Assembly (NCBI GenBank): GCA_043803945.1
Contig: JAZDJN010000027.1
Span: 7,931-71,930, forward strand
Source: a bacterium
GTDB lineage: Bacteria; Bacteroidota; Ignavibacteria; UBA10030
DNA length: 64,000 bases
Direction: 5' to 3'
Position 1 is the first letter of the stretch. Every line of letters begins with the position of its first letter. Positions 7,221 through 45,017 of the stretch are shown in pieces. The notes under the pieces are model-generated. The model was not told the origin of the DNA. It saw only the letters and a program-made list of their open reading frames with translations, and ran no database searches. A program made the position numbers and the translations under genes.

Positions 7221-7244
7221 TCGGATATACCGATAAGAGAAGAC

Positions 7245-8000: not shown

Positions 8001-8036
8001 TGGTCCTCCGATGAAAAGAAATATGATGGATGTCTA

Positions 8037-8738
8037 CTATTCGCTGATGTGTACTGGAAAAGTGAATCCGAGATTGATGCTGAATCCTTTACTTTTATAG
8101 ACTGCATGGTTCAGGATATTCCCGCCTAATATTTCATCCGCAAATTCACCGTTGATTCTTCCACTCTTGATAATATTGTTTAAGCCATGGCTGTACCGTG
8201 CCTCGAAAGAGAGATCGAGAAATTCGTCAATCTGATACATCAGACCACCGCCCAATTCCAGAGAATATTCAAGGTCATCCACCAGATCGTTGGCATCGGC
8301 TTCAAGTTCGATCTGCGCAAACGGGAGTCCCTGGATCTCTGCCCCTAAGCTGGATGAGAGGTTGATCCCAAGCGTTGGTCCGAAAAGGATGTACGGCTTA
8401 AGCTTATTGCCCACAGAATATTTCACGAGAAGGGGAAGTTCCAGGTATGACAGATTGAATGAGATGGTCGGAGAGAACACCAGCGTGTGAAATGGGCTCG
8501 CGGATGTCTCTTTCTCGATGTATGTCGGATTTAGCAACACTGAGAGATTCCTTGTCAATGGGATATCAAGAACTGCTCCGAATGTATGCGTAGGTCGACT
8601 GACAGCATTTGAATAGTAGAAGTTGCTCTGGTTCGCCTGGGAGAAATGAAATCCCCCGTTGAGTCCAAGATGCACTTGCGCCGTGAGTGTATGGAAGACG
8701 AAGAGAAATACGATTGGAAGAAATTTTAATCTGGTCAT
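8037..8738 (-). CDS. Outer-membrane beta-barrel (OmpA/OmpW-like porin family) protein
   Basis: 233 aa with a signal peptide. Alternating hydrophobic beta-strand pattern and a C-terminal aromatic-rich strand, 'GFTFPVHISE'. Confidence 0.45.
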   Translation of the reverse strand: MTRLKFLPIVFLFVFHTLTAQVHLGLNGGFHFSQANQSNFYYSNAVSRPTHTFGAVLDIPLTRNLSVLLNPTYIEKETSASPFHTLVFSPTISFNLSYLELPLLVKYSVGNKLKPYILFGPTLGINLSSSLGAEIQGLPFAQIELEADANDLVDDLEYSLELGGGLMYQIDEFLDLSFEARYSHGLNNIIKSGRINGEFADEILGGNILNHAVYKSKGFSINLGFTFPVHISE

Positions 8739-8885
8739 GGCATGTCACCTTTTTTTATCGTTTGTAAGGGGTTCTTTCTCTTAAGACAAACGAGGAAGTG
8801 TTTTGGGTGACGAGCGATTGGGAGACTTAATAATATTCTTATCCTGGGATCGAGCTGTCTCATAACGTCCGGTGAGGGTAGAGAT

Positions 8886-21507: not shown

Positions 21508-21532
21508 ATACCTCACCGCATGGGACTGTCGT

Positions 21533-22699: not shown

Positions 22700-22730
22700 G
22701 TGATTCCAGAATTTATCCAGGAGAGAAAGC

Positions 22731-25700: not shown

Positions 25701-26726
25701 CTTCTTTTGTCGATGTTCGAAAGGATTGCCCAACAGAAGGCTGGCTTCGAGATTATGGTCACAGCCATGGAAAGTCTCGGGTCTCCGGAATTGCGGGAAT
25801 ACATTGGCGTGGATATGAAGAGTATTCTAGAACTCCAGAAAAAATTTCAATTTACTTTACAGATAGAAGATCCAGAGCTTCGCTGGTCATCTAATCCGCA
25901 GCGCTATATTGAAATTGGGAATCGGTACAGGGGGCTTCTTGGCGGAGATTCCAAACTGGCACTGGACCTCAATATTCTCACCTTCAGGAAGGGAAATGTT
26001 GTCACACCGTTTCCCACATTGATTCAAACCGGTACGGAATGTTTTCAGTTGATTCGGGCTGCTGCTTTGGGTGCCCCACGATTCACGATCTATTCCGAGT
26101 CCAGTGTGAATCCTCAGGACATGACGTTCCTCCCATTTGCTGCCTCGCCGCACGTACAATATCGGTATATCCAAAATGGGTTTGAATTTTATTCCCCCTA
26201 TTCTTTTACCTTACAGCTTCCACCGGCAATCACCATCATTACCGTCGATGGAGCATTACTCGTACCACATCGCGAAAATCTGTTTACCATTCCGGCGGGA
26301 ACACATTCGGTTCGTCTGTCACGTGAGTCCATTGGTTCGTTTTCCGCAAGCGACCTCCAGGCAAAAATTCTTTCCTGCAGCGGGAATCTTACTTCTGTGC
26401 TGTACGGGATGCACGATATGAAGTTTACCTATGAATCAACGACCCGGACATTGATTTCGGTGAATCGCAAACCAACAGCCATCAAAGTCGACCAGCAGGA
26501 GTATCACCCCACCGTAATGAAGGGGAATGATTGCTTCACAATTTTCCTGCCGCCAGGGAACCATGAGGTTGAGTTAAGAGCGGGCGATGCTATTTCGTAC
26601 GGCATCAATCTGACATCCATCTGGTCGTCGACCGGCATTGCGATCTTTGGCACTCTCGCGGTAGCGATGCTTTTCGTTATGTACCTTCTTTTAAAAACCC
26701 TTCGAAAAAAGTATTCATCCGTCTGA
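22731..26726 (+). CDS. Giant (1331-aa) membrane-anchored multidomain protein with a deacetylase-like (DUF2334-like) region and a GH-like TIM-barrel (GHL10-like) region
   Basis: It has an N-terminal signal/anchor and a C-terminal TM helix ('IAIFGTLAVAMLFVMYLLL'). The region 'IRIEDISPMDDPERLRDIADLFASHNVPFLVGVIPFY...LVMHGSTHQY' resembles predicted polysaccharide deacetylases. The region 'IHAAGWHQYPHF...MLVYAWLEP...DWDGVNLAELYFE' resembles glycosyl-hydrolase-like TIM barrels. Confidence 0.55.
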   Translation: MINHCTEMFHGKAAVISTACRCLVLIVILLWCSATTSYSLPQSKTKNIIILVEGDTNLKSIPMAGGRQLATLFGHFDVKSTIKGVNQYTAGEMNGYDLVYYLGDKFKNTPPTNFLNDILTTRKDIVWLNTGFAEFSKTHDVQKTFGFSVSAIDSSSGYEIVKSGTKVFTKGDKPTAVIQIADRELVKVLATTYSPSRKKEIPYIVKSKNLTYIGDSPFSYASETDRYLLFADMLHDILGEQHEESHSAIIRIEDISPMDDPERLRDIADLFASHNVPFLVGVIPFYVNPSTGTRLGLSDKPELVDALKYVVHNGGALVMHGSTHQYKGVTASDFEFWNQMTNKPIADESESTFSKKIESGIQEFMKNGLYPIVWETPHYTGSFLLYKTIAKYFSSAMEPRLAIEDIDQSQFFPYIIAKDLFGQKLYPENLGYVPFDEDPRIGEEAVQTILRGAKANLAVRDGFAACFFHSFNELDLLEELVDGILALGYKFYDLRDQNNWVKTSDRIILTGSQDYTLKLNGQYLSEAYYDVDGQIKQELYSENRIDGTITKSISLAPGELYRAEPVEYRERKLTMTEKLANSLDRAYQHIFTSTDVWKEARVAILWNHYARGSAYNDQASFASTFQSINIKVDTIFLGQQINLQPYNLVVVPYVFIDSLSESDYTTLADYVKRGGNMITDTKSSLTDHFGIKFSETKIRIRRIRDRFFPEEAIAWRYAELVNKIEIDDPDEILCSDEVTQMPMVIGKHVGKGKIIFFNSRFDPYSQQGYSLYPYLLEYVRKFFNLSPIVRRDNLEVYFDTGFRINFSTENLIKQWVTQGIRIIHAAGWHQYPHFTFDYRRLIDLAHANGMLVYAWLEPPQVSQKFWLEHPEWREKNYKNLDVQPSWRYPVAMTDPKCLEALAQEFNTLLEQYDWDGVNLAELYFEAGKGLQEPNLFTPMHPSAKSEIFRKYGIDMNTVFDSTSASYWKHHPSVENSITTYRVNKLREVYELLLSMFERIAQQKAGFEIMVTAMESLGSPELREYIGVDMKSILELQKKFQFTLQIEDPELRWSSNPQRYIEIGNRYRGLLGGDSKLALDLNILTFRKGNVVTPFPTLIQTGTECFQLIRAAALGAPRFTIYSESSVNPQDMTFLPFAASPHVQYRYIQNGFEFYSPYSFTLQLPPAITIITVDGALLVPHRENLFTIPAGTHSVRLSRESIGSFSASDLQAKILSCSGNLTSVLYGMHDMKFTYESTTRTLISVNRKPTAIKVDQQEYHPTVMKGNDCFTIFLPPGNHEVELRAGDAISYGINLTSIWSSTGIAIFGTLAVAMLFVMYLLLKTLRKKYSSV

Positions 26727-26745
26727 CCAGGGAGCCCATCACACC

Positions 26746-28005
26746 ATGTCTGTTTTAGAAATCGATCTCAGTTTTCTCTTCCTCATCGCAGTCATCCTGA
26801 TCTGGTTTATGATCGGCTATCAGTTCGTACTGACGCTCTTTGGGTATATCAATTTTATCCGATCCTTAAGGGAGAAGAACGAGATCGATCAGATGTCGTT
26901 TCAATTCCCTCTTTGTACGATCCTCATTCCGGCACATAATGAAGAAAAGGTCATTGCCAAAACGATCGAGTCGATGTTGAAGCTGAAGTATCCGAAGGAA
27001 CAACTCCAGATTGTCGTTATTAACGACGGCTCGACAGATGCAACGAAGGAGATTAGTGCGAGATGTGCCAGAGAAGACTCACGGGTGGAATTGTACGATA
27101 TTCCCCTCGGTGAAGGCGGTAAAGGAAAATCGAGAACATTGAATCTGGGGCTCAGTGCTGCCCGCGGTGACATTATTGCCATCTACGATGCTGACAACAC
27201 GCCACATGAAGATTCACTCCGCTATCTCGTGTCGCAATTGCTTCTGCATAAGGAGCTTGGCGCTGTGCTCGGGAAATTCCGGACGGTGAATAAAAACAGG
27301 AATTGGCTGACGAAGTTCATTAATATCGAAACCTTAAGTTTTCAGTCCATGCTTCAGGCAGGGAGATGGCAAATGCATAACATTGCCACGCTTCCCGGAA
27401 CGAACTACGTGGTGTGGAGCTGGCTGATCAGAAAATTAGAAGGTTGGGATGAAGAGGCGCTGACGGAAGATTCTGAGCTGAGTATCCGGATGTACGAAGA
27501 GGGATATAAAATTAAATTCATCCCGTATGCTATTACCTATGAACAGGAACCCGAAGAGTGGAAGGTGTGGATTAAGCAGAGGGTTCGATGGGTACGCGGC
27601 AATAATTATGTGCTCTTAAAATTCCTCAAACATATTCCAAAGTTCAAGAATCGACGGCTGGCGTTCGACATCCTCTACACCCTTGCTCTGTACTATATCT
27701 TTTTTGCAGCTATTGTAGTCTCCGACCTTCTGTTCCTGATTGGATTGTTCAACCTAGTCAGTATCTCTCTTCCCGGTCCGTACACGTTTGTCTGGCTTAT
27801 TGCTTTTATCCTCTTCATCCTGGAAATCATTCTAGCAATCTCATTTGACGAAGAGGATAGTTTCAAGCAAATCTGGTTTATTGTGCTCATGTATTTCTCG
27901 TACTGCCAGTTGTGGATTTATATCGTGGTGAAGGCTGTCTATGCGGAGTGGATTAAAAAAGAAAAACGGACTTGGACAAAAACGATCCGGTTTGATACAG
28001 AATGA
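26746..28005 (+). CDS. Processive family-2 glycosyltransferase (PgaC/IcaA/NodC/cellulose-synthase-like polysaccharide synthase)
   Basis: N-terminal TM, then 'ILIPAHNEEKVIAKTIESMLKLKYP...IVVINDGSTD', 'IYDADNT' (DXD) and 'QRVRWVRG' (Q-x-x-R-W), followed by 3-4 C-terminal TM helices. Confidence 0.8.
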   Translation: MSVLEIDLSFLFLIAVILIWFMIGYQFVLTLFGYINFIRSLREKNEIDQMSFQFPLCTILIPAHNEEKVIAKTIESMLKLKYPKEQLQIVVINDGSTDATKEISARCAREDSRVELYDIPLGEGGKGKSRTLNLGLSAARGDIIAIYDADNTPHEDSLRYLVSQLLLHKELGAVLGKFRTVNKNRNWLTKFINIETLSFQSMLQAGRWQMHNIATLPGTNYVVWSWLIRKLEGWDEEALTEDSELSIRMYEEGYKIKFIPYAITYEQEPEEWKVWIKQRVRWVRGNNYVLLKFLKHIPKFKNRRLAFDILYTLALYYIFFAAIVVSDLLFLIGLFNLVSISLPGPYTFVWLIAFILFILEIILAISFDEEDSFKQIWFIVLMYFSYCQLWIYIVVKAVYAEWIKKEKRTWTKTIRFDTE

Positions 28006-28060
28006 ACCCGAAACCGGACGACTCCAAGAGATATCGCAAACTCGCTGACTAACAAAGACT

Positions 28061-29497
28061 ATGAAGAGATCTCCTCAACGAATACCATTCATCCTGTTTT
28101 GTCTTCTCGTGTGTGTTCTTTCCCTGCACTCTCAGAAAGTTCGGAACGATAGTCAAACGAAGAGCAACAACGCAGCAAGTACACTGAGAAGTCAGTATGA
28201 AACCCGGCTCTCTCAGATATTCCTCACCAACGTCACCCGTCAGAAGCACTACGTCGATTCGCTTTCACGAGAGATTATCAAGCTTCGTGATATACTGCAG
28301 AGAGGTGTCAGTAAAGTCCATGACACGCTCATTGTTGCTGCAGCTCGTCTGTTCAATGCTTTGAGGAGAGATTCATTGCAGCGAACCTCTTTCCTGTTGA
28401 CACAACCTTTTCAATCGTTGACAGATCGCTGGAACACTCTCTCAGGTAATTTACTCAATCGTGAAACAACGTTTCTTAAGGCACAGCAATCCTTATTCGG
28501 TCGATCGTCGATTTCAGATCAGGATGAATCTGTTGAAAGGATAGAGGAGTATTCATCGATTGCGGATAGTGTTTCTGAGATGGTTCTTGATTCGAGTTCC
28601 TGCTTTTTCGATACAATCATAGACAATCTCACCGAAGCTGCCGATGCTGCACGCGACTCGTTGGAGTCCGTCTATTGGCTTCTGGAGGAGGATCAACAGA
28701 AGGAGAATGATCTTCTTGCAGAGCGCCAGGAAGCGATTGCAGACAGTCTTGCCGAGGTGAAGGAACATGCTTCGAGACTTGTTGTTTCGATGTACTATAA
28801 TCACCATGCAACGTATCGCGGCCGCGATAATGGGATTAGCTATAATTCATTTGTTCCAACCCTCACGTATACTCATCGATCGGGATTTTCTCTTGGGCTG
28901 ATGGGAATCATTTTCCCCAATCACCCTGAGCGTCGTTATGAAGGTACCGGAGTAAGTCTGGGTTACTCGGGAGAAATTGCTGCTGTGGTGAGTTCCAGCA
29001 TTACCTATACGCATTTTTGGTTTGGCAAGAACAGTGCGGAACCGCGCTCCTATATGAACGATAACCTCTGGGCTGATTTGGATATAAACCTCGGCAGCTT
29101 TTCCATGAATCTTGCATCAACGTATGATATAGGATCAAAATCCGAATTCAATGGTATCCTTACTTCGATGGTTCTTCTTGATCTTGGTAAACCATTCGGA
29201 GCAGACAGGTTCGTCGGCGGCCCGGTGCTTTCGGCGCTCTACGGGCAACAGGATGCAACCTTAACGAGTGTTCGATTAACCATCTTGAAAAAGAGAACGA
29301 TCTCCACAACCGTCACCGAAGAGAAAAAAGTGTTTGGAGTTCTCTGCTATGAGCCGATGTTGATCCTCAGTTATCAGAAGGGGGGATTCAATCTGAAACC
29401 GTCGCTGGTATATGAAATTCCATTAAATGTTGTCGATAATAGCACCTCTCATCCCTTTCTCAATGTGACCTTGGAGATGAGTTATACCATCCGTTAA
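28061..29497 (+). CDS. Secreted protein with a helical N-terminal half and a beta-strand-rich C-terminal half; putative outer-membrane export barrel of the polysaccharide system
   Basis: Signal peptide (FCLLVCVLSLHSQ). Residues ~30-230 are Leu/Glu/Arg/Gln-rich helical sequence. Residues ~240-478 show an alternating hydrophobic pattern ('FSLGLMGIIF', 'GVSLGYSGEIAAVVSS', 'LTSMVLLDLG', 'KPSLVYEIPL', ...). Confidence 0.4.
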   Translation: MKRSPQRIPFILFCLLVCVLSLHSQKVRNDSQTKSNNAASTLRSQYETRLSQIFLTNVTRQKHYVDSLSREIIKLRDILQRGVSKVHDTLIVAAARLFNALRRDSLQRTSFLLTQPFQSLTDRWNTLSGNLLNRETTFLKAQQSLFGRSSISDQDESVERIEEYSSIADSVSEMVLDSSSCFFDTIIDNLTEAADAARDSLESVYWLLEEDQQKENDLLAERQEAIADSLAEVKEHASRLVVSMYYNHHATYRGRDNGISYNSFVPTLTYTHRSGFSLGLMGIIFPNHPERRYEGTGVSLGYSGEIAAVVSSSITYTHFWFGKNSAEPRSYMNDNLWADLDINLGSFSMNLASTYDIGSKSEFNGILTSMVLLDLGKPFGADRFVGGPVLSALYGQQDATLTSVRLTILKKRTISTTVTEEKKVFGVLCYEPMLILSYQKGGFNLKPSLVYEIPLNVVDNSTSHPFLNVTLEMSYTIR

Positions 29498-30763: not shown

Positions 30764-31996
30764 GTGAGTGTCATGATTCTATGGCATCGACGAGCTCTTA
30801 CAAAAAGCACGCAATTGGCAAACAATGTACTGCGTCCATTTCAGGAGTTCTTTCGAATTGAATCGAGTGCCGGGATTCTTCTGTTCATATGCACGGCAGT
30901 CGCATTGTTTTGGGCCAACTCACCGTGGAGTACAACCTACAGTTCCTTCTGGCAGTACAGCCCTGCGGTTGATCTCGGCAGATTCAAGTTCTCGAAATCC
31001 CTTGAACACCTTGTGAATGATGGCTTGATGGCCATCTTTTTTCTCGTTGTCGGATTAGAGATCAAACGGGAATTGTTAGTTGGAGAAATCTCTTCCTTGA
31101 AGAAAGCAGCACTGCCCGTGATTGCCGCGATTGGCGGGATGTTAGTACCAGCCTCGCTATTTCTCTCGTTCAATTCCGGCACTGAAGGTTCGCACGGATG
31201 GGGTATCCCCATGGCAACCGATATTGCCTTTGCCATCGGTGTTCTCTCGCTGCTCGGAAACAGAATACCTCTTGGATTGAAAGTCTTTCTGACAGCCCTG
31301 GCGATCATCGACGACCTAGGTGCCGTTCTGGTAATTGCCTTTTTCTACACCAGCGAGATTAATGGCTCGGCGCTTATTGTAGCAGGAATGATCTTCCTTT
31401 TGCTTCTCCTTCTCAATTACAGAGGAATCCGATTGATTTCGATCTATGTGGTACTTGGATTCTTCCTTTGGATTGCACTCTTAAAATCAGGCGTGCATGC
31501 GACGATTGCGGGGGTCCTGCTAGCCGCAACGATTCCGGCCCAGTTCAACCGGTCATTGGATCAGGAGGGAGAGGGGACCTCGCCGCTCCAAAAACTGGAA
31601 CACACGCTTCATCCATGGGTAAGCTATTTCATCATGCCGGTCTTTGCTCTTGCCAATGCCGGGATTGTGGTGAGTGCCGGCTTCTTATCGGCCCTGACAC
31701 ATTCTATTTCAGCGGGAATCATTCTTGGACTGGTCATCGGCAAGCAGGTGGGGATAACACTCTTCGCATGGTTGGCGGTGCGCTTGAAGCTTGCCTCGCT
31801 GCCGGCACATACCCGGTGGATTCAACTCTATGGAGTTGGCTGGCTGGGCGGTATCGGTTTTACAATGTCGTTGTTCATCGCCACTCTGGCATATGGTGAG
31901 TCAGAGATACTGGCAAATGCAAAATTGGCGATACTAATGGGTTCGGTCATTGCTGGATTTGGAGGATGGGCGCTGCTGCGCTCTGTACGATCATAA
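30764..31996 (+). CDS. nhaA: Na+/H+ antiporter NhaA
   Basis: 'FFRIESSAGILLFICTAVALFWANSPW', 'MAIFFLVVGLEIKRELLVGE' and 'GIPMATDIAFAIGVLSLLG' are canonical NhaA motifs. Confidence 0.85.
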   Translation: MSVMILWHRRALTKSTQLANNVLRPFQEFFRIESSAGILLFICTAVALFWANSPWSTTYSSFWQYSPAVDLGRFKFSKSLEHLVNDGLMAIFFLVVGLEIKRELLVGEISSLKKAALPVIAAIGGMLVPASLFLSFNSGTEGSHGWGIPMATDIAFAIGVLSLLGNRIPLGLKVFLTALAIIDDLGAVLVIAFFYTSEINGSALIVAGMIFLLLLLLNYRGIRLISIYVVLGFFLWIALLKSGVHATIAGVLLAATIPAQFNRSLDQEGEGTSPLQKLEHTLHPWVSYFIMPVFALANAGIVVSAGFLSALTHSISAGIILGLVIGKQVGITLFAWLAVRLKLASLPAHTRWIQLYGVGWLGGIGFTMSLFIATLAYGESEILANAKLAILMGSVIAGFGGWALLRSVRS

Positions 31997-32048
31997 TAAT
32001 ATTTCAACTTACAACGATTTTTTACTTCGAAAATAGAAGGGTTGGCAT

Positions 32049-32258
32049 ATGAAAAAGAATTTTCAATTGATAGACATTGTCTTCAGTCTCATAGTTTCTT
32101 TCGTTGTGAGCCTCATTCTCTGCGTTGTTTATAGTTTACAAACTGATGAGTATGTCCATATTCATTGGGAGCTCTGTGCAGTTCTTGCGTTGCTCATCGG
32201 AGTTGGAATTCTTTGGAATCAACGGCGCGACAGAAAAGCCCAGGTGAAAAAGCAATAA
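32049..32258 (+). CDS. Small two-TM membrane protein (hypothetical)
   Basis: 69-aa ORF with two hydrophobic helices. It sits between nhaA and the next membrane protein; support is weak. Confidence 0.25.
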   Translation: MKKNFQLIDIVFSLIVSFVVSLILCVVYSLQTDEYVHIHWELCAVLALLIGVGILWNQRRDRKAQVKKQ

Positions 32259-32362
32259 CCATGTGCAGTAGTTAGAAAGATCGTTTCATAACGAGGCTCG
32301 AACAACCAAGCATTTTATCCTGTGCTTACAGGCAATCAACATTTAAGCGAGATGAGGTATCT

Positions 32363-33034
32363 ATGCCTAGTCAAATAGAAGCAACCATCAATTCCCTAAA
32401 ATCTCTTTGGGAACAACTCCTCCAATTCTTACCTCAATTGCTTATCAGTCTTGGCATTATGGCAGTCGGATGGTTCATTGCATTATTGATACGGAAGGGA
32501 GTTATTGTCCTCCTTAAACTCCTCCGAGTCGATAAAATGGCAGAAAAAGCTGGGCTCGAAGGTATTCTCTTAAAAGGTGGTGCTCAGTATTCGACAGTGA
32601 ATATCCTGGCAAATCTTTTCTATTGGTTCCTGATGTTGGGGCTAACACTCTCCGTCCTTCATAGCCTCGGATTAGACACGGCAAAGGAAGTGTTCAATCG
32701 GATTATTCTCTACATCCCGAATGTCATTGCAGCTCTCTTTATACTTGTTTTTGGAATGTTTCTGGCAAAACTCTTACGGGGAGCACTGCTCACATACCTT
32801 ACGAATGTCAGAATTTCAGGTGCAGACTTTGTGAGCACGGTAACGTATTGGGCGATCGTTTTTCTTGTCTTATCAAGCATGCTTCAACAACTGTCGCTCG
32901 GTGGACAATTGTTGATCTCGGCGTTCGAAATAGCCTTCGCAGGATTGTGTCTCGCACTCGCCATAGCCTTTGGCCTGGCAGGAAAAGAGTGGGCTACTCA
33001 AATTCTGGAGAAACTCTGGAGAAGCAGTCGTTGA
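32363..33034 (+). CDS. Membrane protein with tandem conserved-TM-helix repeats (MscS-associated 'TM_helix'-like)
   Basis: 223 aa with two similar repeats, 'L..LL..L.I.A...FIALLIRK' and 'IPNVIAALFILVFGMFLAKLLR'. Confidence 0.4.
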   Translation: MPSQIEATINSLKSLWEQLLQFLPQLLISLGIMAVGWFIALLIRKGVIVLLKLLRVDKMAEKAGLEGILLKGGAQYSTVNILANLFYWFLMLGLTLSVLHSLGLDTAKEVFNRIILYIPNVIAALFILVFGMFLAKLLRGALLTYLTNVRISGADFVSTVTYWAIVFLVLSSMLQQLSLGGQLLISAFEIAFAGLCLALAIAFGLAGKEWATQILEKLWRSSR

Positions 33035-33089
33035 TGATACTCAATTATCATTGCGGGAGTGTCTAATTATACGATAGGATGGTGTAATT

Positions 33090-35357
33090 ATGAAGATTAC
33101 CGTTCGTCTTATTATATCGCTTTTCATAGCGGCCGCCTTTGTTGCTGCTGTGTTTTCCTACCTTCAGGTTCAGAATGAACGAGATCTCCTTGTTCAAGAC
33201 CTAACGAGCCGGGCGCGTGTCCTTGGTGAAAGTATGGAGGAAACCATCAAGGAATACATTCAAGCGAATGCAATGGCAAAACTTAAAAGCACGATATATC
33301 GATTCGGCAGAAGGACAAAACTCCTTGGAATTGCAGTTTATGATAATCAAGGGGCGGGTATTGCTTTCAGTCCAGCGCTGGATTCTACATTCTCGACAAC
33401 TCCCCCGGAAGTCTGGGAATCAATCACAAGCCTAAAAGCTGTCAGTGGAATGAAGGAGGTGAGCGGTAATACTGTCCATTTATATGTTCATCCCCTGATG
33501 GCTGACTCGTCGATTGTTGGAGCGTTACTGTTCTACCATGATGTTTCCTTTATTGATGCAAAGCTCCAGGGGATCTGGCAGACAAACTTTATTCGTCTGC
33601 TTACGCATTTTTTCCTAATTATCGTGACGACCATTCTTGTCGTACGATGGAGTATCAAAGGCCCCATTGCACAAATTGCCCATTGGATGCGCGGTTTACG
33701 AACGGGAAAATCTTATCAAACAATCCCAATTCCACGGGGTGATCTTCTTGAACCGTTAGCCAATGAAGTCTCACTGCTTGCAAAAAGCCTCACACAAGCA
33801 CGAACCGCTGCTCAGGAAGAGGCACGTCTGCGTATAGAAGCCGAGTCACTTTGGACCTCAGAACGGCTAAAGGAACATGTCAAAATTGAGTTAAACGGGA
33901 AAAATCTTTTCGTTATCTCCAACCGCGAGCCCTATATGCATATGATAATGGGAGGAACGATTCAGTGTATCGTTCCGGCGGGCGGATTAGTCACTGCCCT
34001 TGATCCGATTCTGCGTGCGTGCGGGGGTATATGGATTGCCCATGGGAGTGGCACTGCTGACAGAGAGACTGTTGATATGCAGGATCGCGTTCAGGTTCCA
34101 CCAGAGGATCCGACATATTCATTGCGACGAGTCTTTCTCACCAAAGAGGAGGAAGAGGGATACTATTACGGGTTCTCCAACGAAGGGATATGGCCGCTCT
34201 GTCATATTACACACACTCGTCCCACATTTAAATTACAAGATTGGGTTCATTATCAAAATGTCAATGAGCAATTTGCAAAAGCGTTGTTAGAAGAAATCCG
34301 AAATGAAGAATCTCCCCTGATTTTGATTCAGGATTATCATTTTGCTCTCCTTCCATTATTGATTAAATCCAAACGCCCGGATGCGAGGGTGGCGATCTTC
34401 TGGCATATTCCCTGGCCCAATCCCGAAGTGTTCGGCATTTGTCCCTGGAAACAGGAATTGCTGCTTGGTTTACTCGGCGCGGATCTTATCGGGTTTCATA
34501 TCCAATTTCACTGCAACAATTTCCTTGAGACAGTGGATCGTTACTTAGAATCAAAAATCAACTGGGATCAATTTTCCGTTGAGCGGCATGGACAACTCAC
34601 CTCTGTGCGTCCATTTCCTATCAGTGTCGCTCATCCGTATGAGTCTGAAATCAGCACTCAACGGCCAGTCTCTATCGCTACCAAAGAGTCCTTACTCAAA
34701 AAATCTGGAGTTGTTGCTCCCTTCATGGCGTTGGGCGTCGATCGGATAGACTATACAAAGGGAATCGTTGAACGATTCCAGGCAGTGCGGCGATTCCTGG
34801 AAAAATATCCAGAATATGTTGGGAAGTTTACATTCGTTGAACTCGGAGCACCGAGCCGTACGCATATCAAACGCTACCACGACCTGATCGCTGAATTGGA
34901 TGAAACAGTCGATCGCATTAATTGGTCGTTTCAAGCTAAAAATTGGAAACCGATCGTTTTTCTCAAAGCCCACCATGATCACAAAACCATCGGCGATTAT
35001 TATCGGGTTGCCGATGTGTGCATGGTCACTTCTCTTCATGACGGGATGAATCTCGTTGCCAAAGAATTTATTGCAACACGCACCGATGACGATGGTGTTC
35101 TCATTCTCAGTCAATTTGCAGGGGCGGCACGGGAGCTACCCGATGCACTCATCGTTAATCCGTACGATATTGAAGAAATGGCTGAAGCGCTTCATCTGGC
35201 ATTGACGATGGAGAAAAAAGAACAACGTGAACGAATGCAAGAGATGCGAACGGTGGTGAAAGAAAGAAATGTTTACCGGTGGGCAGCGAACATTATAACA
35301 ACCCTCACGCACTTGCGGATGCCCAAGCAACCTGCAGCGATGGAGTCACAACAGTGA
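33090..35357 (+). CDS. otsA: Trehalose-6-phosphate synthase (GT20, OtsA) fused to an N-terminal two-TM periplasmic sensor plus HAMP-like module
   Basis: The C-terminal ~480 aa carry GT20 motifs: 'LILIQDYHFALLPLLIK', 'IFWHIPWPNPEVFGICPW', 'LLGADLIGFHIQFH', 'GVDRIDYTKGI' and 'ILSQFAGAARELPDALIVNPYDIEEMAEAL'. The N-terminal ~270 aa comprise TM1 (res 7-25), a ~140-aa extracytoplasmic region, TM2 ('FIRLLTHFFLIIVTTILVV') and a HAMP-like helix-connector-helix ('GPIAQIAHWMRGL...PRGDLLEPLANEVSLLAKSL'). Confidence 0.8.
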   Translation: MKITVRLIISLFIAAAFVAAVFSYLQVQNERDLLVQDLTSRARVLGESMEETIKEYIQANAMAKLKSTIYRFGRRTKLLGIAVYDNQGAGIAFSPALDSTFSTTPPEVWESITSLKAVSGMKEVSGNTVHLYVHPLMADSSIVGALLFYHDVSFIDAKLQGIWQTNFIRLLTHFFLIIVTTILVVRWSIKGPIAQIAHWMRGLRTGKSYQTIPIPRGDLLEPLANEVSLLAKSLTQARTAAQEEARLRIEAESLWTSERLKEHVKIELNGKNLFVISNREPYMHMIMGGTIQCIVPAGGLVTALDPILRACGGIWIAHGSGTADRETVDMQDRVQVPPEDPTYSLRRVFLTKEEEEGYYYGFSNEGIWPLCHITHTRPTFKLQDWVHYQNVNEQFAKALLEEIRNEESPLILIQDYHFALLPLLIKSKRPDARVAIFWHIPWPNPEVFGICPWKQELLLGLLGADLIGFHIQFHCNNFLETVDRYLESKINWDQFSVERHGQLTSVRPFPISVAHPYESEISTQRPVSIATKESLLKKSGVVAPFMALGVDRIDYTKGIVERFQAVRRFLEKYPEYVGKFTFVELGAPSRTHIKRYHDLIAELDETVDRINWSFQAKNWKPIVFLKAHHDHKTIGDYYRVADVCMVTSLHDGMNLVAKEFIATRTDDDGVLILSQFAGAARELPDALIVNPYDIEEMAEALHLALTMEKKEQRERMQEMRTVVKERNVYRWAANIITTLTHLRMPKQPAAMESQQ

Positions 35358-36193
35358 AGAATCCGGTCTATCTATTTTCAGGACGACGAGAATCATGGGA
35401 CGCGATCGCCCGGAAATTACGCGCTGCTTCCGGCATAGCTCTATTTCTTGATTACGATGGAACATTGACCCCGATCCGGCGGACGCCATCAGCGGCAGTT
35501 CTTACACCGGACGTAAAGAACATTTTACAGCAGTTGGCACAACTTCCGGATGTGTGCGTCGCTATCGTCACCGGCAGGTCAATGAGGGATATCCAGAAAC
35601 TCGTTCGTGTAGATACCCTCGGATTTGCCGCAAATCATGGTTTCCATATGGATATCAATGGAATTGACTGGATTCATCCTCAAGCTGTATCTCAGAAGAA
35701 AGTACTGTCACGACTTCACTCGATTCTTTGCAACGCACTTGCAGCATTTCCTGAACTCTATATTGAGAACAAACAATTCACATTAAGTATTCATTATAGG
35801 AATGTTGCTGCACATCATGTCCGTTCCCTCAAAGCACTGGTTTCGAAAACCGTACACTCATTTAATCCGACACTACAAATAACTCGCGGAAAGAAAATAT
35901 TGGAAGTAAGACCTCAAATACCATGGGGAAAGGGAGATGCTGTTTTAGCAATGTTAAATTTGAGTAAGACTTCTCAACGCCGGATCCCGCTGTTTATCGG
36001 CGATGATACAACAGATGAGGATGTCTTTCGAGCCTTGCGTTCGAAAGGGATAACGATACGGGTGGGAAGGGCGCGATCTACAAATGCGCAATACTATGTG
36101 AAGAGCGTCAAGGAAGTTCACGATATACTTCGATTGATCATCTCTCTCAGAGAGAATCGTTCTATCCGCACTCGTTCACGTCAGAAGAAATAA
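35354..36193 (+). CDS. otsB: Trehalose-6-phosphate phosphatase (HAD superfamily)
   Basis: HAD motif I is 'LFLDYDGTLTP' and motif IV is 'FIGDDTTDEDVF'. The probable GTG start overlaps the otsA stop in a GTGA overlap, suggesting translational coupling. The ORF is open from 35279. Confidence 0.8.
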   Translation: MKNPVYLFSGRRESWDAIARKLRAASGIALFLDYDGTLTPIRRTPSAAVLTPDVKNILQQLAQLPDVCVAIVTGRSMRDIQKLVRVDTLGFAANHGFHMDINGIDWIHPQAVSQKKVLSRLHSILCNALAAFPELYIENKQFTLSIHYRNVAAHHVRSLKALVSKTVHSFNPTLQITRGKKILEVRPQIPWGKGDAVLAMLNLSKTSQRRIPLFIGDDTTDEDVFRALRSKGITIRVGRARSTNAQYYVKSVKEVHDILRLIISLRENRSIRTRSRQKK

Positions 36194-36208
36194 GGAAGGA
36201 ACATCAGC

Positions 36209-37417
36209 ATGCATGCATTAGAAGAATACCGGGACATTGTCGGTGATGATGTTATCGCAGAAATCTATCGTTTAGCTCGTCCGCTATATGGTAAGAAAAT
36301 CCTTCATATCAATTCCACCTACTATGGAGGCGGTGTTGCAGAGATCCTCTATTCACTTGTGCCACTTCTGAATGCCGCCGGTCTTGATGCCGACTGGAGA
36401 ATGTTGCGAGGTACTCCGGAATTTTTCAACGTCACAAAGAAATTCCACAACGCTATTCAGGGTGAATCGATCCGAATGACCGACATCAAGGCAGCGCTCT
36501 ATTCCGAGAATAATCAGGACTTTGCATCGTATTGCAAGATCGATGCCGATTGTGTGATCATTCATGATCCTCAACCATTACCACTGATCCGTTTTTATAA
36601 GAAACGCCAACCCTGGCTCTGGAGGTGTCACGTTGATCTCTCGCATCCAAACCAAGATCTCTGGCACTTTCTCAAAGGGTATATCCTTGCCTATGATGGT
36701 ATCATTGTCTCCGATGAACAGTATGTTCAAAAAGATCTTCCGATGAACTATACTATCATCGATCCTGCTATTGATCCACTCTCCTCGAAGAATAGAGTTA
36801 TCCCGGAGGACCTAATAGAACGGACGCTTCAGAAGTATGATGTCCCCACTGATAAACCATTTATTACTCAAATATCAAGATTTGACAAGTGGAAAGATCC
36901 TGAAAATGTTATTGAAGTATATAAACTTGTGCGGAAGGAATGCGATTGTCGGTTAATACTGTGTGGAAGCATGGCAACGGATGATCCGGAAGGCTGGGAA
37001 TATTTCGAGCGAACGAGGAAGGCAGCAGGATCGTACCTTGATAATAAGGATATCATATTGATTACAGTAGAGGACAATATTTTGGTCAATGCACTCCAGA
37101 GTAAGTCGACCATCATTCTTCAAAAATCGATACGGGAAGGATTCGGGCTCACGGTCACTGAAGCGCTCTGGAAGGGCAAGCCAGTAGTTGCATCGAATGT
37201 TGGCGGTATTCCCCGGCAGTTGATTGATAATAAAACGGGATTTCTCGTGGAGCCGCTAGATATCCAGGGTTGTGCCGATATCGTGAGTACGATTCTAAAG
37301 AATCCAAAGTTGGGTCAGGCACTTGGTGTGAATGGTAAAGAACACGTTCGAAAAAACTTTCTCATCACCCGGCATGTGATTGATGATCTAAAGCTGCTCA
37401 ATAAAATATTGAGTTGA
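36209..37417 (+). CDS. treT: Trehalose glycosyltransferring synthase (TreT-type, GT4; NDP-glucose + glucose -> trehalose)
   Basis: 'HINSTYYGGGVAEILYSLVPLL', 'FFNVTKKFHNAIQG', 'PWLWRCHVDLSHPN' and 'IREGFGLTVTEALWKGKPVVASNVGGIPRQ' closely match the motif set I recall for archaeal and Thermotoga TreT. Confidence 0.6.
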   Translation: MHALEEYRDIVGDDVIAEIYRLARPLYGKKILHINSTYYGGGVAEILYSLVPLLNAAGLDADWRMLRGTPEFFNVTKKFHNAIQGESIRMTDIKAALYSENNQDFASYCKIDADCVIIHDPQPLPLIRFYKKRQPWLWRCHVDLSHPNQDLWHFLKGYILAYDGIIVSDEQYVQKDLPMNYTIIDPAIDPLSSKNRVIPEDLIERTLQKYDVPTDKPFITQISRFDKWKDPENVIEVYKLVRKECDCRLILCGSMATDDPEGWEYFERTRKAAGSYLDNKDIILITVEDNILVNALQSKSTIILQKSIREGFGLTVTEALWKGKPVVASNVGGIPRQLIDNKTGFLVEPLDIQGCADIVSTILKNPKLGQALGVNGKEHVRKNFLITRHVIDDLKLLNKILS

Positions 37418-37435
37418 GATTGACTGTGGTGGACC

Positions 37436-37966
37436 ATGAATTATTTTGAACGTTTTTACAAACACAAGAAATTTTTTGATTTCCTGGACGAGCTAAAGAT
37501 AAAGCAGCGGCACTGGATTATCTTATCGATTCTCGTTGCAAGCGCCGATTTCCTGAGTGGCAACAAGATCCAATTTTCTATCCTCTACCTCTTGCCCATT
37601 GCTTTGGCTGCCTGGTTTGGTGAACGTCGTGAAGCATTGATTCTTGCTTTGCTACTTCCCTGTTCTCGATTGATCTTCCGAGCACAATGGGATATGCCAT
37701 GGTTCGTTCTCGATTCAATGATAAATCTTCTCATTCGCATTCTTGTCTTTATCATTATTGCATATTTAATTTCTTTCATAAAAGAGCTACACGTGTTGAG
37801 GGGATTATTGCACATCTGTTCGTATTGCAATCGGATCAAAAATGAAGATGGAACCTGGATCTCCGTGCAGGAGTATATCGTTGATCATTCAGAAGCTCTC
37901 TTGAGTCATGGCATATGTCTTGAGTGTGGTTCAAAACATTTCAGTCGACTGTTTCCGAACAAATGA
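37436..37966 (+). CDS. Membrane protein (4 TM) with a C-terminal CxxC...CxxC zinc-ribbon-like tail
   Basis: 176 aa. The C-terminus is 'CSYCNRIKNEDGTW...CLECGSKHF'. Confidence 0.4.
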   Translation: MNYFERFYKHKKFFDFLDELKIKQRHWIILSILVASADFLSGNKIQFSILYLLPIALAAWFGERREALILALLLPCSRLIFRAQWDMPWFVLDSMINLLIRILVFIIIAYLISFIKELHVLRGLLHICSYCNRIKNEDGTWISVQEYIVDHSEALLSHGICLECGSKHFSRLFPNK

Positions 37967-38142
37967 GATACTTTTTCGACATGAGTGATTTGACCAATAA
38001 GGATTGAGCATATAGTTAACATTACTTGATAAATGCTGAATTTCTTGATCTCAAAAACTAGGTACTATTCTCCGGTTTGCAGATGTAATGATTCCTTCTC
38101 ATATTCAATTCACGATCACTAATTCCAGTAAAAGTTGGAACA

Positions 38143-40137
38143 TTGATGCCAGTGGGATCAAAACGATTTCAACTCCCAAAATTATTAATGCGCCTCACTG
38201 CGCCTCCCAGAAACGCGGTAGAGAAGTGGTTTTATCATGGAGGAAAAGTTGATGCAAAATCCCGAAAGAGCGAAACGCATCCTTGGTACAGAGTACTCTG
38301 GCTCACCGGTGTTGATTATTTTTCTACGTTAGGATACCAACCGGGAATTGCCCTCCTTGCTGCAGGAGCTCTTTCTCCTTTGGCAACGGCTCTTTTAGTA
38401 ATTGTCACCTTGTTTGGTGCGTTGCCAGCCTATCTGCAGGTAGCACAACGTTCGTATGCCGGTCAGGGATCCATCGCGATGCTGGAGAATCTGCTTCATG
38501 GATGGAAGGGTAAAATCTTCGTTCTGATTCTCCTGGGATTTGCCAGTACAGATTTCGTTATTACGATCACACTCTCTTCTGCTGATGCAGTCCAGCATCT
38601 CCTCGAGAATCCACTTATCGGTCCCTTCTTTGGCGATGCACGCCTGACATTAACAAATATCATGCTGGCAATCCTTGCCGGTGTATTCTTAATGGGCTTT
38701 ACTGAGGCAATCAGAATTGCTGTTTTTGTTACAATACCATACCTGGCATTAAATGCCATTGTCATACTCCGGTGCATCGTTGAGATCATCCAGCGACCGG
38801 AACTATTCACCAATTGGTCAGCAATGCTCTCGCTTCACGGTGATCCAATCATGATCGTTCTGGTCTGTGCCTTGATTTTTCCGAAGCTCGCTTTGGGACT
38901 TAGCGGTTTTGAAACCGGTGTCGCAGTTATGCCGCTCGTATCCTCAGGAGGGGGTGTCTCCCGGGGTCAGATACCATTCGTCAGAATCGCTGCAACAAAA
39001 AAGCTACTTACCACGGCCGCTCTGATCATGAGCGTATTTCTTATCTCTTCAAGTTTTGTAACGACCCTGCTTATTTCGGAAAAAGAATTCGCCCTCGGAG
39101 GAATAGCAAGTGGAAGGGCATTGGCATTTCTGAGTCATACCTATCTTGGACATACTTTTGGAACGTTGTACGATATTTCCACGATCGCGATTCTCTGGTT
39201 TGCGGGTGCCTCAGCAATGGCGGGCTTACTCAACGTGATTCCCCGATATCTGCCGCGGTTTGGTATGGCGCCGCGATGGGTAGCCTACACCCGGCCCCTG
39301 GTTATTGTGATCTTTATTGTAAGCCTTATCGTGACAAAAATCTTCAATGCGAGTGTCGAAGCTCAAGGTGGAGCATATGCCACTGGAGTTCTTGTTCTGA
39401 TGCTTTCTGCAGCGGTCGCCGTTGCTCTCGAGCTGAAGCGTGAAGCGATGGATAAAGCAGAGTATCTTCTGGGAAGAATTAAAAAAGTTCTCTTAAGCGG
39501 ATATTTTTGGGTTATTACGTTGATTTTCACATTCACACTTATTGATAATATTTTCGTTCGCCCGGATGGAGTGATCATTGCAAGCCTGTTTATTATTTCG
39601 ATTATTGCACTGGGTGCATTGAGCCGCTACATCCGACAGACAGAATTACGCGTGGAAAGTATGTCGCTTGTGGATGAGGAGTCACTAGCCTTGTGGCAAA
39701 AAATTAAAGGGAAGAAGGTTAATCTTGCACCGTTAAAAGATGAGAATCAGGACTCTATAGTCAAAAAGCAGAGTGAAATTAGCAGACATTACAAAGTTCA
39801 GGGTCCGATAGCATTCGTTCATGTCCATCTTCTCGATAACCGCAGCGAATTTCTGACTCCGTTGCAATTGAAAATTCGTAGGCGAGGAAAACATTACATG
39901 ATTAATATCTTTGGCGCTGTAGCTGTCGCGAATAGTCTCGCCTATCTGAGCGAACAGATGGATCCAAAAACCATCTTCATTGGTCTCACAGGGCAGAACC
40001 TCATGACTCAATCACTAAACTATTTTATTTGGGGAGAAGGCGAGGTGGGACTTTCGGTGTACACCATTCTTGTTCGATATTGGGAATGGATCGGTGAAGA
40101 AAATGAACGGCCGCTAATTTTCTTAATGAGTGAATGA
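38143..40137 (+). CDS. APC-superfamily-like polytopic permease with a ~180-aa cytoplasmic C-terminal domain
   Basis: 664 aa with ~12 hydrophobic helices in the first ~480 aa, and a soluble C-terminal region. Confidence 0.45.
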   Translation: MMPVGSKRFQLPKLLMRLTAPPRNAVEKWFYHGGKVDAKSRKSETHPWYRVLWLTGVDYFSTLGYQPGIALLAAGALSPLATALLVIVTLFGALPAYLQVAQRSYAGQGSIAMLENLLHGWKGKIFVLILLGFASTDFVITITLSSADAVQHLLENPLIGPFFGDARLTLTNIMLAILAGVFLMGFTEAIRIAVFVTIPYLALNAIVILRCIVEIIQRPELFTNWSAMLSLHGDPIMIVLVCALIFPKLALGLSGFETGVAVMPLVSSGGGVSRGQIPFVRIAATKKLLTTAALIMSVFLISSSFVTTLLISEKEFALGGIASGRALAFLSHTYLGHTFGTLYDISTIAILWFAGASAMAGLLNVIPRYLPRFGMAPRWVAYTRPLVIVIFIVSLIVTKIFNASVEAQGGAYATGVLVLMLSAAVAVALELKREAMDKAEYLLGRIKKVLLSGYFWVITLIFTFTLIDNIFVRPDGVIIASLFIISIIALGALSRYIRQTELRVESMSLVDEESLALWQKIKGKKVNLAPLKDENQDSIVKKQSEISRHYKVQGPIAFVHVHLLDNRSEFLTPLQLKIRRRGKHYMINIFGAVAVANSLAYLSEQMDPKTIFIGLTGQNLMTQSLNYFIWGEGEVGLSVYTILVRYWEWIGEENERPLIFLMSE

Positions 40138-44565: not shown

Positions 44566-44639
44566 TACGCCCGAAGGGAGTCGAACCCCTAACCCTCAGC
44601 TCCGTAGGCTGATGCTCTATCCAGTTGAGCTACGGGCGC
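44566..44639 (-). tRNA. tRNA-Arg (anticodon ACG)
   Basis: The reverse complement folds as a cloverleaf: acceptor GCGCCCG/CGGGCGT, D-arm GCTC..GAGC, anticodon stem TCAGC/GCTGA with loop CTACGGA, and T-arm AGGGG-TTCGACT-CCCTT. There is no encoded CCA. Confidence 0.8.
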
Positions 44640-44755
44640 AAAGGAATATGTAAATGTGGAAATGAGTAAATGAAGGAATTGTAGCATTGAAAAGACGTTT
44701 CTCTTAATTCCTCAATTTCCTAATTCCCAAATTTTCACATTCTCACATTTCTATG

Positions 44756-44828
44756 TAGCCCTAACGGGATTCGAACCCGTATTTTGGCCTTGAGAGGGCC
44801 ACGTCCTAAACCCTTAGACGATAGGGCC
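44756..44828 (-). tRNA. tRNA-Glu (anticodon CTC)
   Basis: Reverse complement 'GGCCCTATCGTCTAAGGGTTTAGGACGTGGCCCTCTCAAGGCCAAAATACGGGTTCGAATCCCGTTAGGGCTA'. The anticodon loop is CTCTCAA and the T-loop is TTCGAAT. Confidence 0.75.
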
Positions 44829-44944
44829 AAGGTAAATAAGTGAATGTGAAAATGTGGAATTGAAAAACAGTTTCTTTCAATTTCTCAATGCCATATTCTA
44901 CATTCTCATATTCCCCCATTCTCATATTTCCATTGCTGCCCCGC

Positions 44945-45017
44945 TAGGGCTCGAACCTAGACTCTTCTGATCCAGAGTCAGACGTGTTGCCAGTTACACC
45001 ACGGGGCAATTAAAAAT
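44945..45017 (-). tRNA. tRNA-Gln (anticodon CTG)
   Basis: Reverse complement 'TGCCCCGTGGTGTAACTGGCAACACGTCTGACTCTGGATCAGAAGAGTCTAGGTTCGAGCCCTAGCGGGGCAG'. The U1-A72 pair is typical of tRNA-Gln, the anticodon loop is CTCTGGA and the T-arm is CTAGG-TTCGAGC-CCTAG. Confidence 0.8.

Follow-up and report, generated by a model that had tools for sequence, protein, structure and literature searches.

A trehalose-6-phosphate synthase fused to a predicted transmembrane sensor module in a putative OtsA-OtsB-TreT operon of an Ignavibacteria genome

Within a 64,000-nucleotide stretch of contig JAZDJN010000027.1 (assembly GCA_043803945.1, positions 7,931 to 71,930; Bacteroidota, Ignavibacteria, UBA10030), hereafter the window, we identified a putative trehalose operon. 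It comprises a gene for a small membrane protein resembling part of the channel MscS (mscTM), a trehalose-6-phosphate (T6P) synthase gene (otsA), a T6P phosphatase gene (otsB) and a gene for a trehalose glycosyltransferring synthase (treT). The synthase itself appears to be fused to a transmembrane (TM) sensor module of the kind found in histidine kinases. We consider it probable that this is a stress operon, with salt or osmotic stress the most likely cue, in which trehalose is made by two parallel routes and OtsA is under receptor control. An earlier note on this DNA had drawn attention to two trehalose routes, OtsA/OtsB and TreT, encoded back to back. The three same-strand genes that it placed at 33090-37417 are present as open reading frames (ORFs) with matching domains, and the family searches described below uphold their identities. 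However, the pairing of these routes is ordinary. What makes the locus of interest is the receptor-fused OtsA, of which our searches turned up no earlier description, together with the wide distribution of the module formed by T6P synthase (TPS), T6P phosphatase (TPP) and TreT, sometimes with an msc gene.

Hydropathy analysis of the first 270 residues of OtsA gave two candidate membrane helices, at approximately residues 5-25 and 166-186, and K2 and R6 precede the first of these, as expected from the positive-inside rule. Given positive residues N-terminal of TM1 and again after TM2, and substrates that require it, the catalytic domain of glycosyltransferase family 20 (GT20) would be cytoplasmic, and a two-TM topology is predicted. 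Residues 1-280 were modelled with AlphaFold2 on the basis of 66 homologues, at a mean predicted local distance difference test score (pLDDT) of 90.3. The model begins with a long helix from TM1, continues with an alpha/beta domain (62-151), a helix running through TM2 (153-205), a connector, a helix (221-251) and a short helix (257-267), and ends in the first strand of the GT20 domain ('LFVISNRE'). When searched with Foldseek, the whole module matched the TM-PAS-TM-HAMP model of Bacillus subtilis WalK (9a5d_A; E 1.4e-10, TM-score by query (TMq) 0.71, 267 columns). The outside domain matched the extracellular domain of Staphylococcus aureus WalK (5is1, 4ywz; E 1e-7, TM-score by target (TMt) 0.73-0.78), and the next matches were the Cache domains of DctB, DcuS, CitA and Tlp3. 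A sequence profile reached 5is1 at a marginal E of 0.0075. The NCBIfam WalK model matched the window OtsA weakly (E 2.8e-6) and in its N-terminal part only, and a search of the N-terminal region alone against Pfam and NCBIfam gave nothing significant. Among the 66 family members, Pfam matched sCache_3_2 in 11, SMP_2 in 9, HAMP in 3, CHASE8 in 3 and Cache_WalK in 2, the CHASE8 and SMP_2 matches being weak.

Conservation across these 66 members is highest, for the N-terminal region, in the helical linker that joins the HAMP-like region to the catalytic domain (residues 241-271, mean top-residue frequency 0.57, consensus 'EEARLR...WT.ERL'). In close homologues the most conserved stretch is TM2 together with its exit ('VVRWSIxGPIAQIA'), and P192 and G206 of the HAMP-like region are nearly invariant. 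On the strength of the model we conclude that OtsA is fused to a transmembrane module of the histidine-kinase sensor type, with sensing as its presumed function. The kinases WalK (YycG), DcuS, CitA and DctB share the order of elements and the fold (TM, PAS/PDC (Cache), TM and HAMP, or in OtsA a HAMP-like region), but their output is DHp/CA kinase domains, whereas here it is a GT-B sugar-nucleotide glycosyltransferase. Comparable receptor-enzyme fusions are diguanylate cyclases of the YfiN/DgcN type (CHASE8, HAMP, GGDEF) and HAMP-containing adenylate cyclases, in which an outside sensor and HAMP govern a cytoplasmic catalytic domain within one polypeptide. Those receptors make second messengers, whereas the output of the fused OtsA (hereafter sensor-OtsA) would be a step of compatible-solute biosynthesis.

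The catalytic domain matched Pfam PF00982 (Glyco_transf_20) over residues 273-739 at E 3.6e-118 (profile positions 3-471/473), and solved OtsA/TPS structures in the PDB matched it at E 1e-76 to 1e-69. Twelve Escherichia coli OtsA residues, R10, G22, G23, Y77, W86, D131, H155, R263, K268, R301, D362 and E370 in gene numbering, fall in columns that are invariant in the alignment with the window protein. They correspond to the donor- and glucose-6-phosphate (G6P)-binding residues of structures 1gz5/1uqt (R9, G21/22, Y76, W85, D130, H154, R262, K267, R300, D361 and E369, mature numbering). As all of these active-site residues are invariant, the window OtsA should be active, that is, enzymatically competent. 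The G6P-binding Arg is contained in 'LFVISNRE', a few residues past the linker. At NCBI the protein is named trehalose-6-phosphate synthase.

The identity of otsB is supported by Pfam PF02358 (Trehalose_PPase; E 3e-51) and TIGR00685 (165.6 bits against a cut-off of 68.05). Its longest frame extends over 35279-36193. In the same frame, the GTG at 35354 overlaps the TGA stop of otsA (GTGA), and the 279-aa product from this GTG is an exact match to NCBI protein MFH0989516 ('trehalose-phosphatase'); we therefore place the otsB start at 35354. Translational coupling of otsB to otsA is probable from this overlap. The earlier note had labelled otsA a fusion. A fusion does exist, but it joins an N-terminal membrane sensor module to OtsA rather than OtsA to OtsB: the two genes are separate ORFs with an in-frame stop, and there is no TPS-TPP fusion (TPSP) at this locus. 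The note mentions neither the sensor module nor the MscS-like gene upstream. In E. coli otsBA, a GT20 synthase and a HAD-IIB T6P phosphatase are likewise encoded by adjacent, translationally coupled genes, although in the order otsB-otsA rather than otsA-otsB. Moreover, E. coli OtsA is a soluble protein of 474 aa, whereas the window OtsA bears a 270-aa transmembrane receptor module. E. coli OtsA is controlled for the most part at the level of transcription, through RpoS and osmotic induction.

An exhaustive HMMER search with OtsA residues 1-275 recovered 824 members at E<=1e-3, 385 at <=1e-10 and 66 at <=1e-30, counted as cluster representatives and mostly metagenomic fragments. The exhaustive search was required to see the family, as a word-indexed homologue search found only 7 fragments. 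GT20 follows the N-terminal module in 10/10 scanned relatives of at least 547 aa, and five complete-looking relatives (745-913 aa) contain the whole GT20 domain. Named members are Acidobacteriota/Terriglobia proteins annotated only 'trehalose-6-phosphate synthase', and our literature search found no paper joining HAMP or a sensor domain with T6P synthase. Judged by sequence, sensor-OtsA is a coherent family that is annotated only as T6P synthase. Elsewhere its genes occur without treT: beside response regulator and histidine kinase genes (loci L082 and L083), with otsB 1.3 kb downstream (L086), or alone.

Two further observations concern these relatives. In L083-L085, where histidine kinase and response regulator genes adjoin otsA, a 468-aa protein encoded nearby (922-2328, plus strand) combines a receiver domain with NTP_transferase, a sugar-nucleotide pyrophosphorylase domain, which suggests a signal-controlled supply of the nucleoside diphosphate (NDP)-glucose donor. 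In the 913-aa relative P0008 (L088, 1968-4709) the outside-domain query matches twice, at residues 1-168 and 172-436, alongside weak matches to SMP_2, CHASE8 and HAMP.

The 402-aa protein encoded behind otsB is labelled only 'glycosyltransferase' at NCBI ('trehalose synthase' is the IMG label in its 90% cluster). It matched the TreT-specific N-terminal domain PF21269 (TreT_GT1) over its full length (1-144/144) at E 4.8e-56 and 188.9 bits against a cut-off of 27, and its C-terminal part matched PF00534 (Glycos_transf_1; E 1.6e-29). Pyrococcus horikoshii TreT (2x6q) aligned over the full length (residues 3-399; E 2.5e-121, 408.8 bits) and Thermoproteus uzoniensis TreT (6zj4) scored 364 bits (E 1e-107). 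The next PDB enzyme of family GT4, the sucrose-phosphate synthase (SPS)-like 6kih, matched only in the C-terminal domain (E 1.3e-15). In NCBIfam, TreT_Thcocales came first at 421.7 bits, followed by BshA at 85.4 bits. The score misses the trusted cut-off of the former model (NF041139, 775); since that model was built for Thermococcales orthologues, the miss speaks against strict Thermococcales orthology and not against family membership. The EX7E motif is kept, and SIREGFGLTVTEA, which includes the Glu equivalent to P. horikoshii E326, is identical in the window protein and 2x6q; the 2xa2 variant, in which E326 is changed to Ala, reads 'IRAGFG' at this position. Both motifs quoted in the earlier note are present, aligning to PWLWRCHIDLSSPN and IREGFGLTVTEAMWKGKPV of P. 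horikoshii TreT.

The score gaps likewise favour TreT over the possibility, raised in the earlier note, that the protein clusters with generic or SPS-like GT4 enzymes. As for the phylogeny proposed there, the protein groups with TreT sequences in a neighbour-joining tree, but the tree held two solved TreTs and no GT4 outgroup, and the assignment therefore rests on the score gaps in the model and PDB searches as well as on the tree. We conclude from these comparisons that the 402-aa protein is a TreT-family enzyme and not a generic GT4, and its NCBI name can be sharpened accordingly. Characterised TreTs (EC 2.4.1.245; P. horikoshii, Thermococcus litoralis, Thermoproteus) share PF21269, EX7E and a length of ~400 aa with it. 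The window protein differs in belonging to a large, mostly mesophilic clade of bacterial and archaeal sequences encoded behind TPS/TPP genes, and the two solved TreTs fall outside this clade in the same distance tree. No member of the TPSP-linked clade is among the solved structures, and we found no characterised one.

To survey the gene context of treT we took one genome per species, which gave 348 TreT-encoding stretches, and examined the best 80. TPS and TPP genes lay on the treT strand, adjoining or near, in 59/80 loci, and directly upstream in 47. In ~50/80 loci they formed a single fused TPSP ORF (~730 aa) that ends a few bases before the treT start or overlaps it. This adjacency is far above chance. 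When all ORFs of the 80 loci were clustered, no other conserved neighbour family occurred in more than 7. The pairing was found in bacterial metagenome-assembled genomes (MAGs) labelled Syntrophales, Deltaproteobacteria, Thermodesulfobacteriota, Zixibacteria, Aminicenantes, Stahlbacteria, WOR-3, Neomarinimicrobiota, Latescibacterota, Synergistota, Actinomycetota and other Ignavibacteria, as well as under archaeal labels (Bathyarchaeia, Archaeoglobales, Hodarchaeota, Nitrososphaerales and others). TPS/TPP plus TreT is thus an old and widespread module of two genes, in which treT usually comes after a fused TPSP, and it is not specific to the window. Organisms with several trehalose routes are well known. 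The gene context of treT is a sugar ABC transporter cluster in Thermococcales and orfY in Thermoproteus tenax. We found no paper on a TPSP-treT operon, with an earlier description possible in Kouril et al. 2008, which deals with the gene context of treT.

The closest relatives by TreT are Ignavibacteria/Ignavibacteriaceae MAGs (85-89% identity), and the window clade is nested in the TPSP-linked clade as sister to the TPSP-treT loci of Syntrophales. The window catalytic domain of OtsA is 51-72% identical to other sensor-OtsA proteins and 31-42% identical to TreT-linked TPSPs. It thus groups with sensor-OtsA, and the window otsA is not a split TPSP; we reject fission of an ancestral TPSP into otsA and otsB on these identities. 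The sequence comparisons indicate that, in a subgroup of Ignavibacteria, sensor-OtsA and a stand-alone otsB replaced the TPSP of a pre-existing TPSP-treT module. Besides the window, the full layout of mscTM, sensor-otsA, otsB and treT was found only in the Ignavibacteria-group loci L002-L007. Locus L001 retains an MscS gene, mscTM, treT and a homologue of the next gene downstream in the window, which encodes a membrane protein with four cysteines (Cys4), without otsAB. That treT persists in this setting when otsAB is missing speaks for TreT as a synthase that works on its own. In L005, a 630-aa GH13 plus CBM48 protein (TreZ/GlgX-like; 7239-9131, plus strand) is encoded 4 nt after treT and is followed by nhaA, a hint that trehalose might there be made by a third route, from glycogen, within that cluster.

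The first gene of the putative operon encodes a protein that matches Pfam PF05552 (the conserved TM helix of MS_channel) in two stretches (E 7.4e-17) and NCBIfam 'msc' NF033912 in its membrane part only. Its residues 114-206 align with residues 24-116 (TM1-TM3) of E. coli MscS at E 0.02, and the MscS beta and C-terminal (cytoplasmic) domains are lacking. In L001, L002 and L004-L007 its homologues (49-70% identity) immediately precede the trehalose genes, and L003 has a partial match. Full-length MscS genes take the position just before TPSP in L008, L014, L019 and L024; L001 has one ahead of mscTM. Loci labelled Ignavibacteria, Proteobacteria, Bacteroidetes, Stahlbacteria and Hydrothermota combine msc with TPS/TPP and TreT.

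A parallel exists in T. tenax, where an msc-gt-tpsp operon encodes the first prokaryotic trehalose synthase complex; TPSP needs to be complexed with the co-encoded GT4 protein for synthase activity, and the authors considered the operon organisation unique to Thermoproteales (PMC3634074). In both systems the TPS/TPP genes share one operon-like unit with genes for a GT4 and for a TM-only MscS-like protein, and both msc products (223 aa in the window, 197 aa in T. tenax) resemble only the membrane region of MscS. They differ in gene order (msc-tps-tpp-gt4 in the window) and in the GT4, which is a true TreT in the window and PimA-like in T. tenax (TTX_1305). Moreover, TPS and TPP are separate in the window, with TPS bearing its own sensor, whereas T. 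tenax has a fused TPSP that is required there for activation.

A Na+/H+ antiporter gene, nhaA (PF06965, E 3.7e-153; TIGR00773, 434.8 bits against a cut-off of 254), lies upstream of the operon. In the window, as in L001, L002, L005 and L007, no more than a few kb separate an nhaA gene from the module, and this recurrence fits the salt-stress theme. The spacer between nhaA and mscTM holds an ORF of ~69 aa with two hydrophobic segments, read by eye (~32049-32258, plus strand), and a similar ORF of 74 aa lies beside nhaA in L007 (13007-13231, minus strand). These may encode a conserved small membrane protein linked to nhaA.

The genes of the putative operon are closely packed (Table 1): 55 nt separate mscTM from otsA, otsA and otsB overlap by 4 nt, and 18 nt lie between treT and the Cys4 gene. 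As the earlier note had it, treT comes directly after otsB, but the spacer is 15 nt (36194-36208) and not 16 bp; the Shine-Dalgarno-like AAGGAAGG precedes the treT start. A terminator scan gave no terminator-like site in the intergenic spacers of 32363-37966, the four matches in this interval all lying within the otsA coding region; counts in the terminator and promoter scans were close to the shuffled expectation. A search of 31900-38300 against Rfam at E<=1 matched no riboswitch or other RNA element. We conclude that mscTM, sensor-otsA, otsB and treT form an operon-like unit and, judging from this layout, a putative operon; the Cys4 gene is probably co-transcribed with it, as a tentative member.

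Table 1. Features of the putative trehalose operon and its surroundings (window coordinates)
Feature	Coordinates	Strand	Description
mscTM	32363-33034	+	223 aa, transmembrane-only MscS-like; first gene of putative operon
sensor-otsA	33090-35357	+	755 aa, GT20 trehalose-6-phosphate synthase with N-terminal membrane module
N-terminal cytoplasmic stub and TM1	33090-33164	+	predicted; residues 1-25; hydropathy peak 1-28
extracytoplasmic PAS/PDC (single-Cache-like) domain	33165-33584	+	predicted; residues 26-165; model, Foldseek
TM2	33585-33647	+	predicted; residues 166-186; hydropathy peak 165-194; then 'RWSIKG'
HAMP-like helix-connector-helix	33648-33809	+	predicted; residues 187-240; model
conserved helical linker	33810-33902	+	residues 241-271; between HAMP-like region and catalytic domain
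GT20 catalytic domain of sensor-OtsA	33903-35357	+	residues 272-755 plus stop
otsB	35354-36193	+	279 aa, trehalose-6-phosphate phosphatase
treT	36209-37417	+	402 aa, trehalose glycosyltransferring synthase (GT4)
Cys4 gene	37436-37966	+	176-aa membrane protein, C-terminal CxxC...CxxC; operon membership tentative
nhaA	30764-31996	+	Na+/H+ antiporter; recurrent neighbour, outside operon
663/664-aa membrane ORF	38143/38146-40137	+	NCBI start ATG 38146, giving 663 aa

According to the reading that we consider probable, the unit would respond to salt, osmotic or envelope stress. A signal from outside or from the membrane would travel along the HAMP-like region and linker, reach the GT-B enzyme at its N-terminal lobe and thereby switch T6P synthesis on or off post-translationally. 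The G6P-binding Arg follows the linker so closely that slight shifts of the helices could control acceptor binding or the geometry of the dimer. In the first route, OtsA would join NDP-glucose and G6P to form T6P, from which OtsB would remove the phosphate. In the second, TreT would join NDP-glucose and free glucose directly, so that carbon could enter by another path. In this scheme the MscS-like membrane protein would serve as the counterpart for release or for sensing tension. The analysis shows the gene identities, the domain architecture, the conservation of catalytic residues, the synteny statistics and the distribution of the family; what we infer is the operon status, signalling by the N-terminal module, the kind of signal and a TreT that works towards synthesis. 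A wider proposal, which is possible if somewhat doubtful, is that sensor-OtsA represents a class of one-component transmembrane receptors in which a Cache and HAMP module of the histidine-kinase type drives a GT-B glycosyltransferase, the first committed enzyme of compatible-solute synthesis being itself the sensor of osmotic, ionic or envelope stress, alongside a conserved msc, TPS/TPP and TreT module in which TreT may be a physical partner.

Several observations weigh against this reading. Pfam HAMP had no match in the window OtsA even at E<=10, and it is weak in relatives (E 1e-3 in P0008; 3/66 family members at <=0.01). We therefore name residues 187-240 'HAMP-like', an assignment that rests on the model and on the weak matches in relatives. 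The outside domain is the least conserved part of the family (top-residue frequency 0.42 across the 66 members), so that no conserved ligand site can be named. The window OtsA scored 432.1 bits with the NCBIfam equivalog TIGR02400, under its cut-off of 564.85, and 295 bits, well below that, with the glucosylglycerol-phosphate synthase model; with scores under the equivalog cut-offs, the acceptor is deduced from the conserved residues and the adjacent T6P phosphatase. The direction of TreT cannot be read from its sequence, which scores closer to the reversible P. horikoshii enzyme. Since sensor-OtsA occurs elsewhere without treT, the two are not functionally tied. The sigma-70 promoter scan was uninformative, its consensus being probably unsuited to this phylum. 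Lastly, the source is an uncultured MAG.

The lack of a Pfam HAMP match and the poor conservation of the outside domain would also be consistent with an N-terminal module that merely anchors or localises OtsA at the membrane, perhaps beside the MscS-like protein, without signalling. We regard this as unlikely. For an anchor one helix would suffice, yet OtsA carries a 140-aa PAS/Cache domain, TM2 and a helix-connector-helix, in an architecture that superposes on the sensor part of WalK. Moreover, it is the linker that is best conserved in the N-terminal region, with P192 and G206 nearly invariant, and the outside domain is duplicated in P0008, as occurs in true sensors.

Two other explanations assign TreT a different role. 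TreT of T. litoralis and P. horikoshii is reversible (PMC13597711, PMC7688234, citing Kouril 2008 and Woo 2010), and OtsAB might make trehalose under stress whilst TreT in reverse (trehalose plus ADP/UDP to NDP-glucose plus glucose) recovers the carbon or buffers the trehalose level. The higher score of the window TreT against the P. horikoshii than against the T. uzoniensis enzyme is in keeping with this, as is the absence of trehalase, TreP and TreS among the scanned ORFs of the window, although the latter observation covers 64 kb of the genome only. However, a reverse-running TreT that is co-transcribed with otsAB would result in a futile cycle (net G6P to glucose plus Pi). In Thermococcales, moreover, catabolic use of TreT is linked to a trehalose/maltose ABC transporter cluster; this is absent here, and a solute-binding protein gene is nearby in only 6/80 loci. 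As L001 also retains treT in the same msc context without otsAB, we find salvage distinctly unlikely. Alternatively, TreT could serve mainly as a protein partner or activator of TPS/TPP, in a complex as in T. tenax, which would explain the tight and wide linkage. There TPSP is activated by the co-encoded GT4, and the operon also holds a TM-only MscS-like gene (PMC3634074); in our survey, TPSP and treT are adjacent in ~50/80 loci with frequent stop/start overlaps, which suggest coupled translation. Against this, the T. tenax partner is PimA-like and not TreT, and it takes effect only where TPS and TPP are fused, unlike in the operon described here. Catalytic motifs are retained in TreT, whose sequences stay ~55-68% identical between domains of life, as befits an enzyme; moreover, treT is found without otsAB in L001, and sensor-OtsA is found elsewhere without treT. 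A role chiefly as activator is thus very unlikely, although TreT may have a dual role. We retain as probable the reading of a stress operon with two parallel routes and a receptor-controlled OtsA.

The earlier note had also suggested that the two genes downstream of treT, for the Cys4 membrane protein and for a 664-aa transporter, belong to the same osmoadaptation module. Synteny lends this no support: the Cys4 gene recurs in L001 only and the 664-aa protein is found in none of the related loci, and we rejected both as conserved parts of the module. The homologue in L001 lies directly after treT and is 57% identical to the window protein, which had 3 matches in 5.8 billion proteins. No Pfam family was assigned to it, DUF4118, the KdpD membrane domain, matching very weakly (E 0.16). 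The protein ends in CSYCNRIKNEDGTWISVQEYIVDHSEALLSHGICLECG, that is, CxxC, 29 residues and CxxC, an arrangement presumably resembling the ends of various bacterial signalling proteins.

The 664-aa ORF starts 176-179 nt past the Cys4 gene. Its family has at least 8000 database matches, with ~60% identity across Acidobacteriota, Tectomicrobia and Ignavibacteriales, all 'hypothetical'. Pfam, NCBIfam and PDB sequence searches gave no match to the protein, and a family profile found no PDB sequence. The AlphaFold2 model, of low confidence (pLDDT 60.9), has a C-terminal cytoplasmic domain, and its best fold matches are KimA (a K+ importer), cation-chloride cotransporters and APC transporters; from such a model the resemblance to KimA and the cation-chloride cotransporters is only a hint. 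Homologues elsewhere adjoin Na+/H+ exchangers or unrelated genes and never trehalose genes; in the Ignavibacteriales MAG locus L090 the homologue is followed by two Na+/H+ exchanger genes and nhaA. The family may consist of uncharacterised ion transporters.

Other features of the window lie apart from the operon. Upstream, 21476-29497 (plus strand) encodes a UDP-GlcNAc 2-epimerase, a 1331-aa DUF2334-containing protein, a membrane GT2 (chitin/cellulose-synthase-like) and a 478-aa protein with a signal-peptide-like N-terminus and no Pfam match, a gene set that suggests exopolysaccharide synthesis and export. The segment 10001-14000 has a G+C content of 0.33-0.37 against ~0.45-0.47 in the remainder of the window and, from its composition, may be horizontally acquired. 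In Rfam, only three tRNAs reached the gathering score across the whole window; their genes lie at 44566-45008 (minus strand), ~180-190 nt apart.

In summary, the passage from an osmotic or salt signal to compatible-solute synthesis is understood mostly via gene regulation and osmosensing transporters, and to our knowledge there are few documented cases in which a biosynthetic enzyme senses the signal directly. A T6P synthase bearing a kinase-type receptor would offer a simple testable system, with one protein and one measurable product, and would extend the outputs of HAMP-type receptors to a metabolic glycosyltransferase. The sensor-OtsA family is sizeable, with hundreds of sequence clusters and with Acidobacteriota and Ignavibacteria among its hosts. 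Moreover, the TPS/TPP plus TreT module generalises an arrangement reported as unique to Thermoproteales, and its presence in many phyla, sometimes with an MscS gene, suggests that two 'alternative' trehalose routes normally work as a unit.

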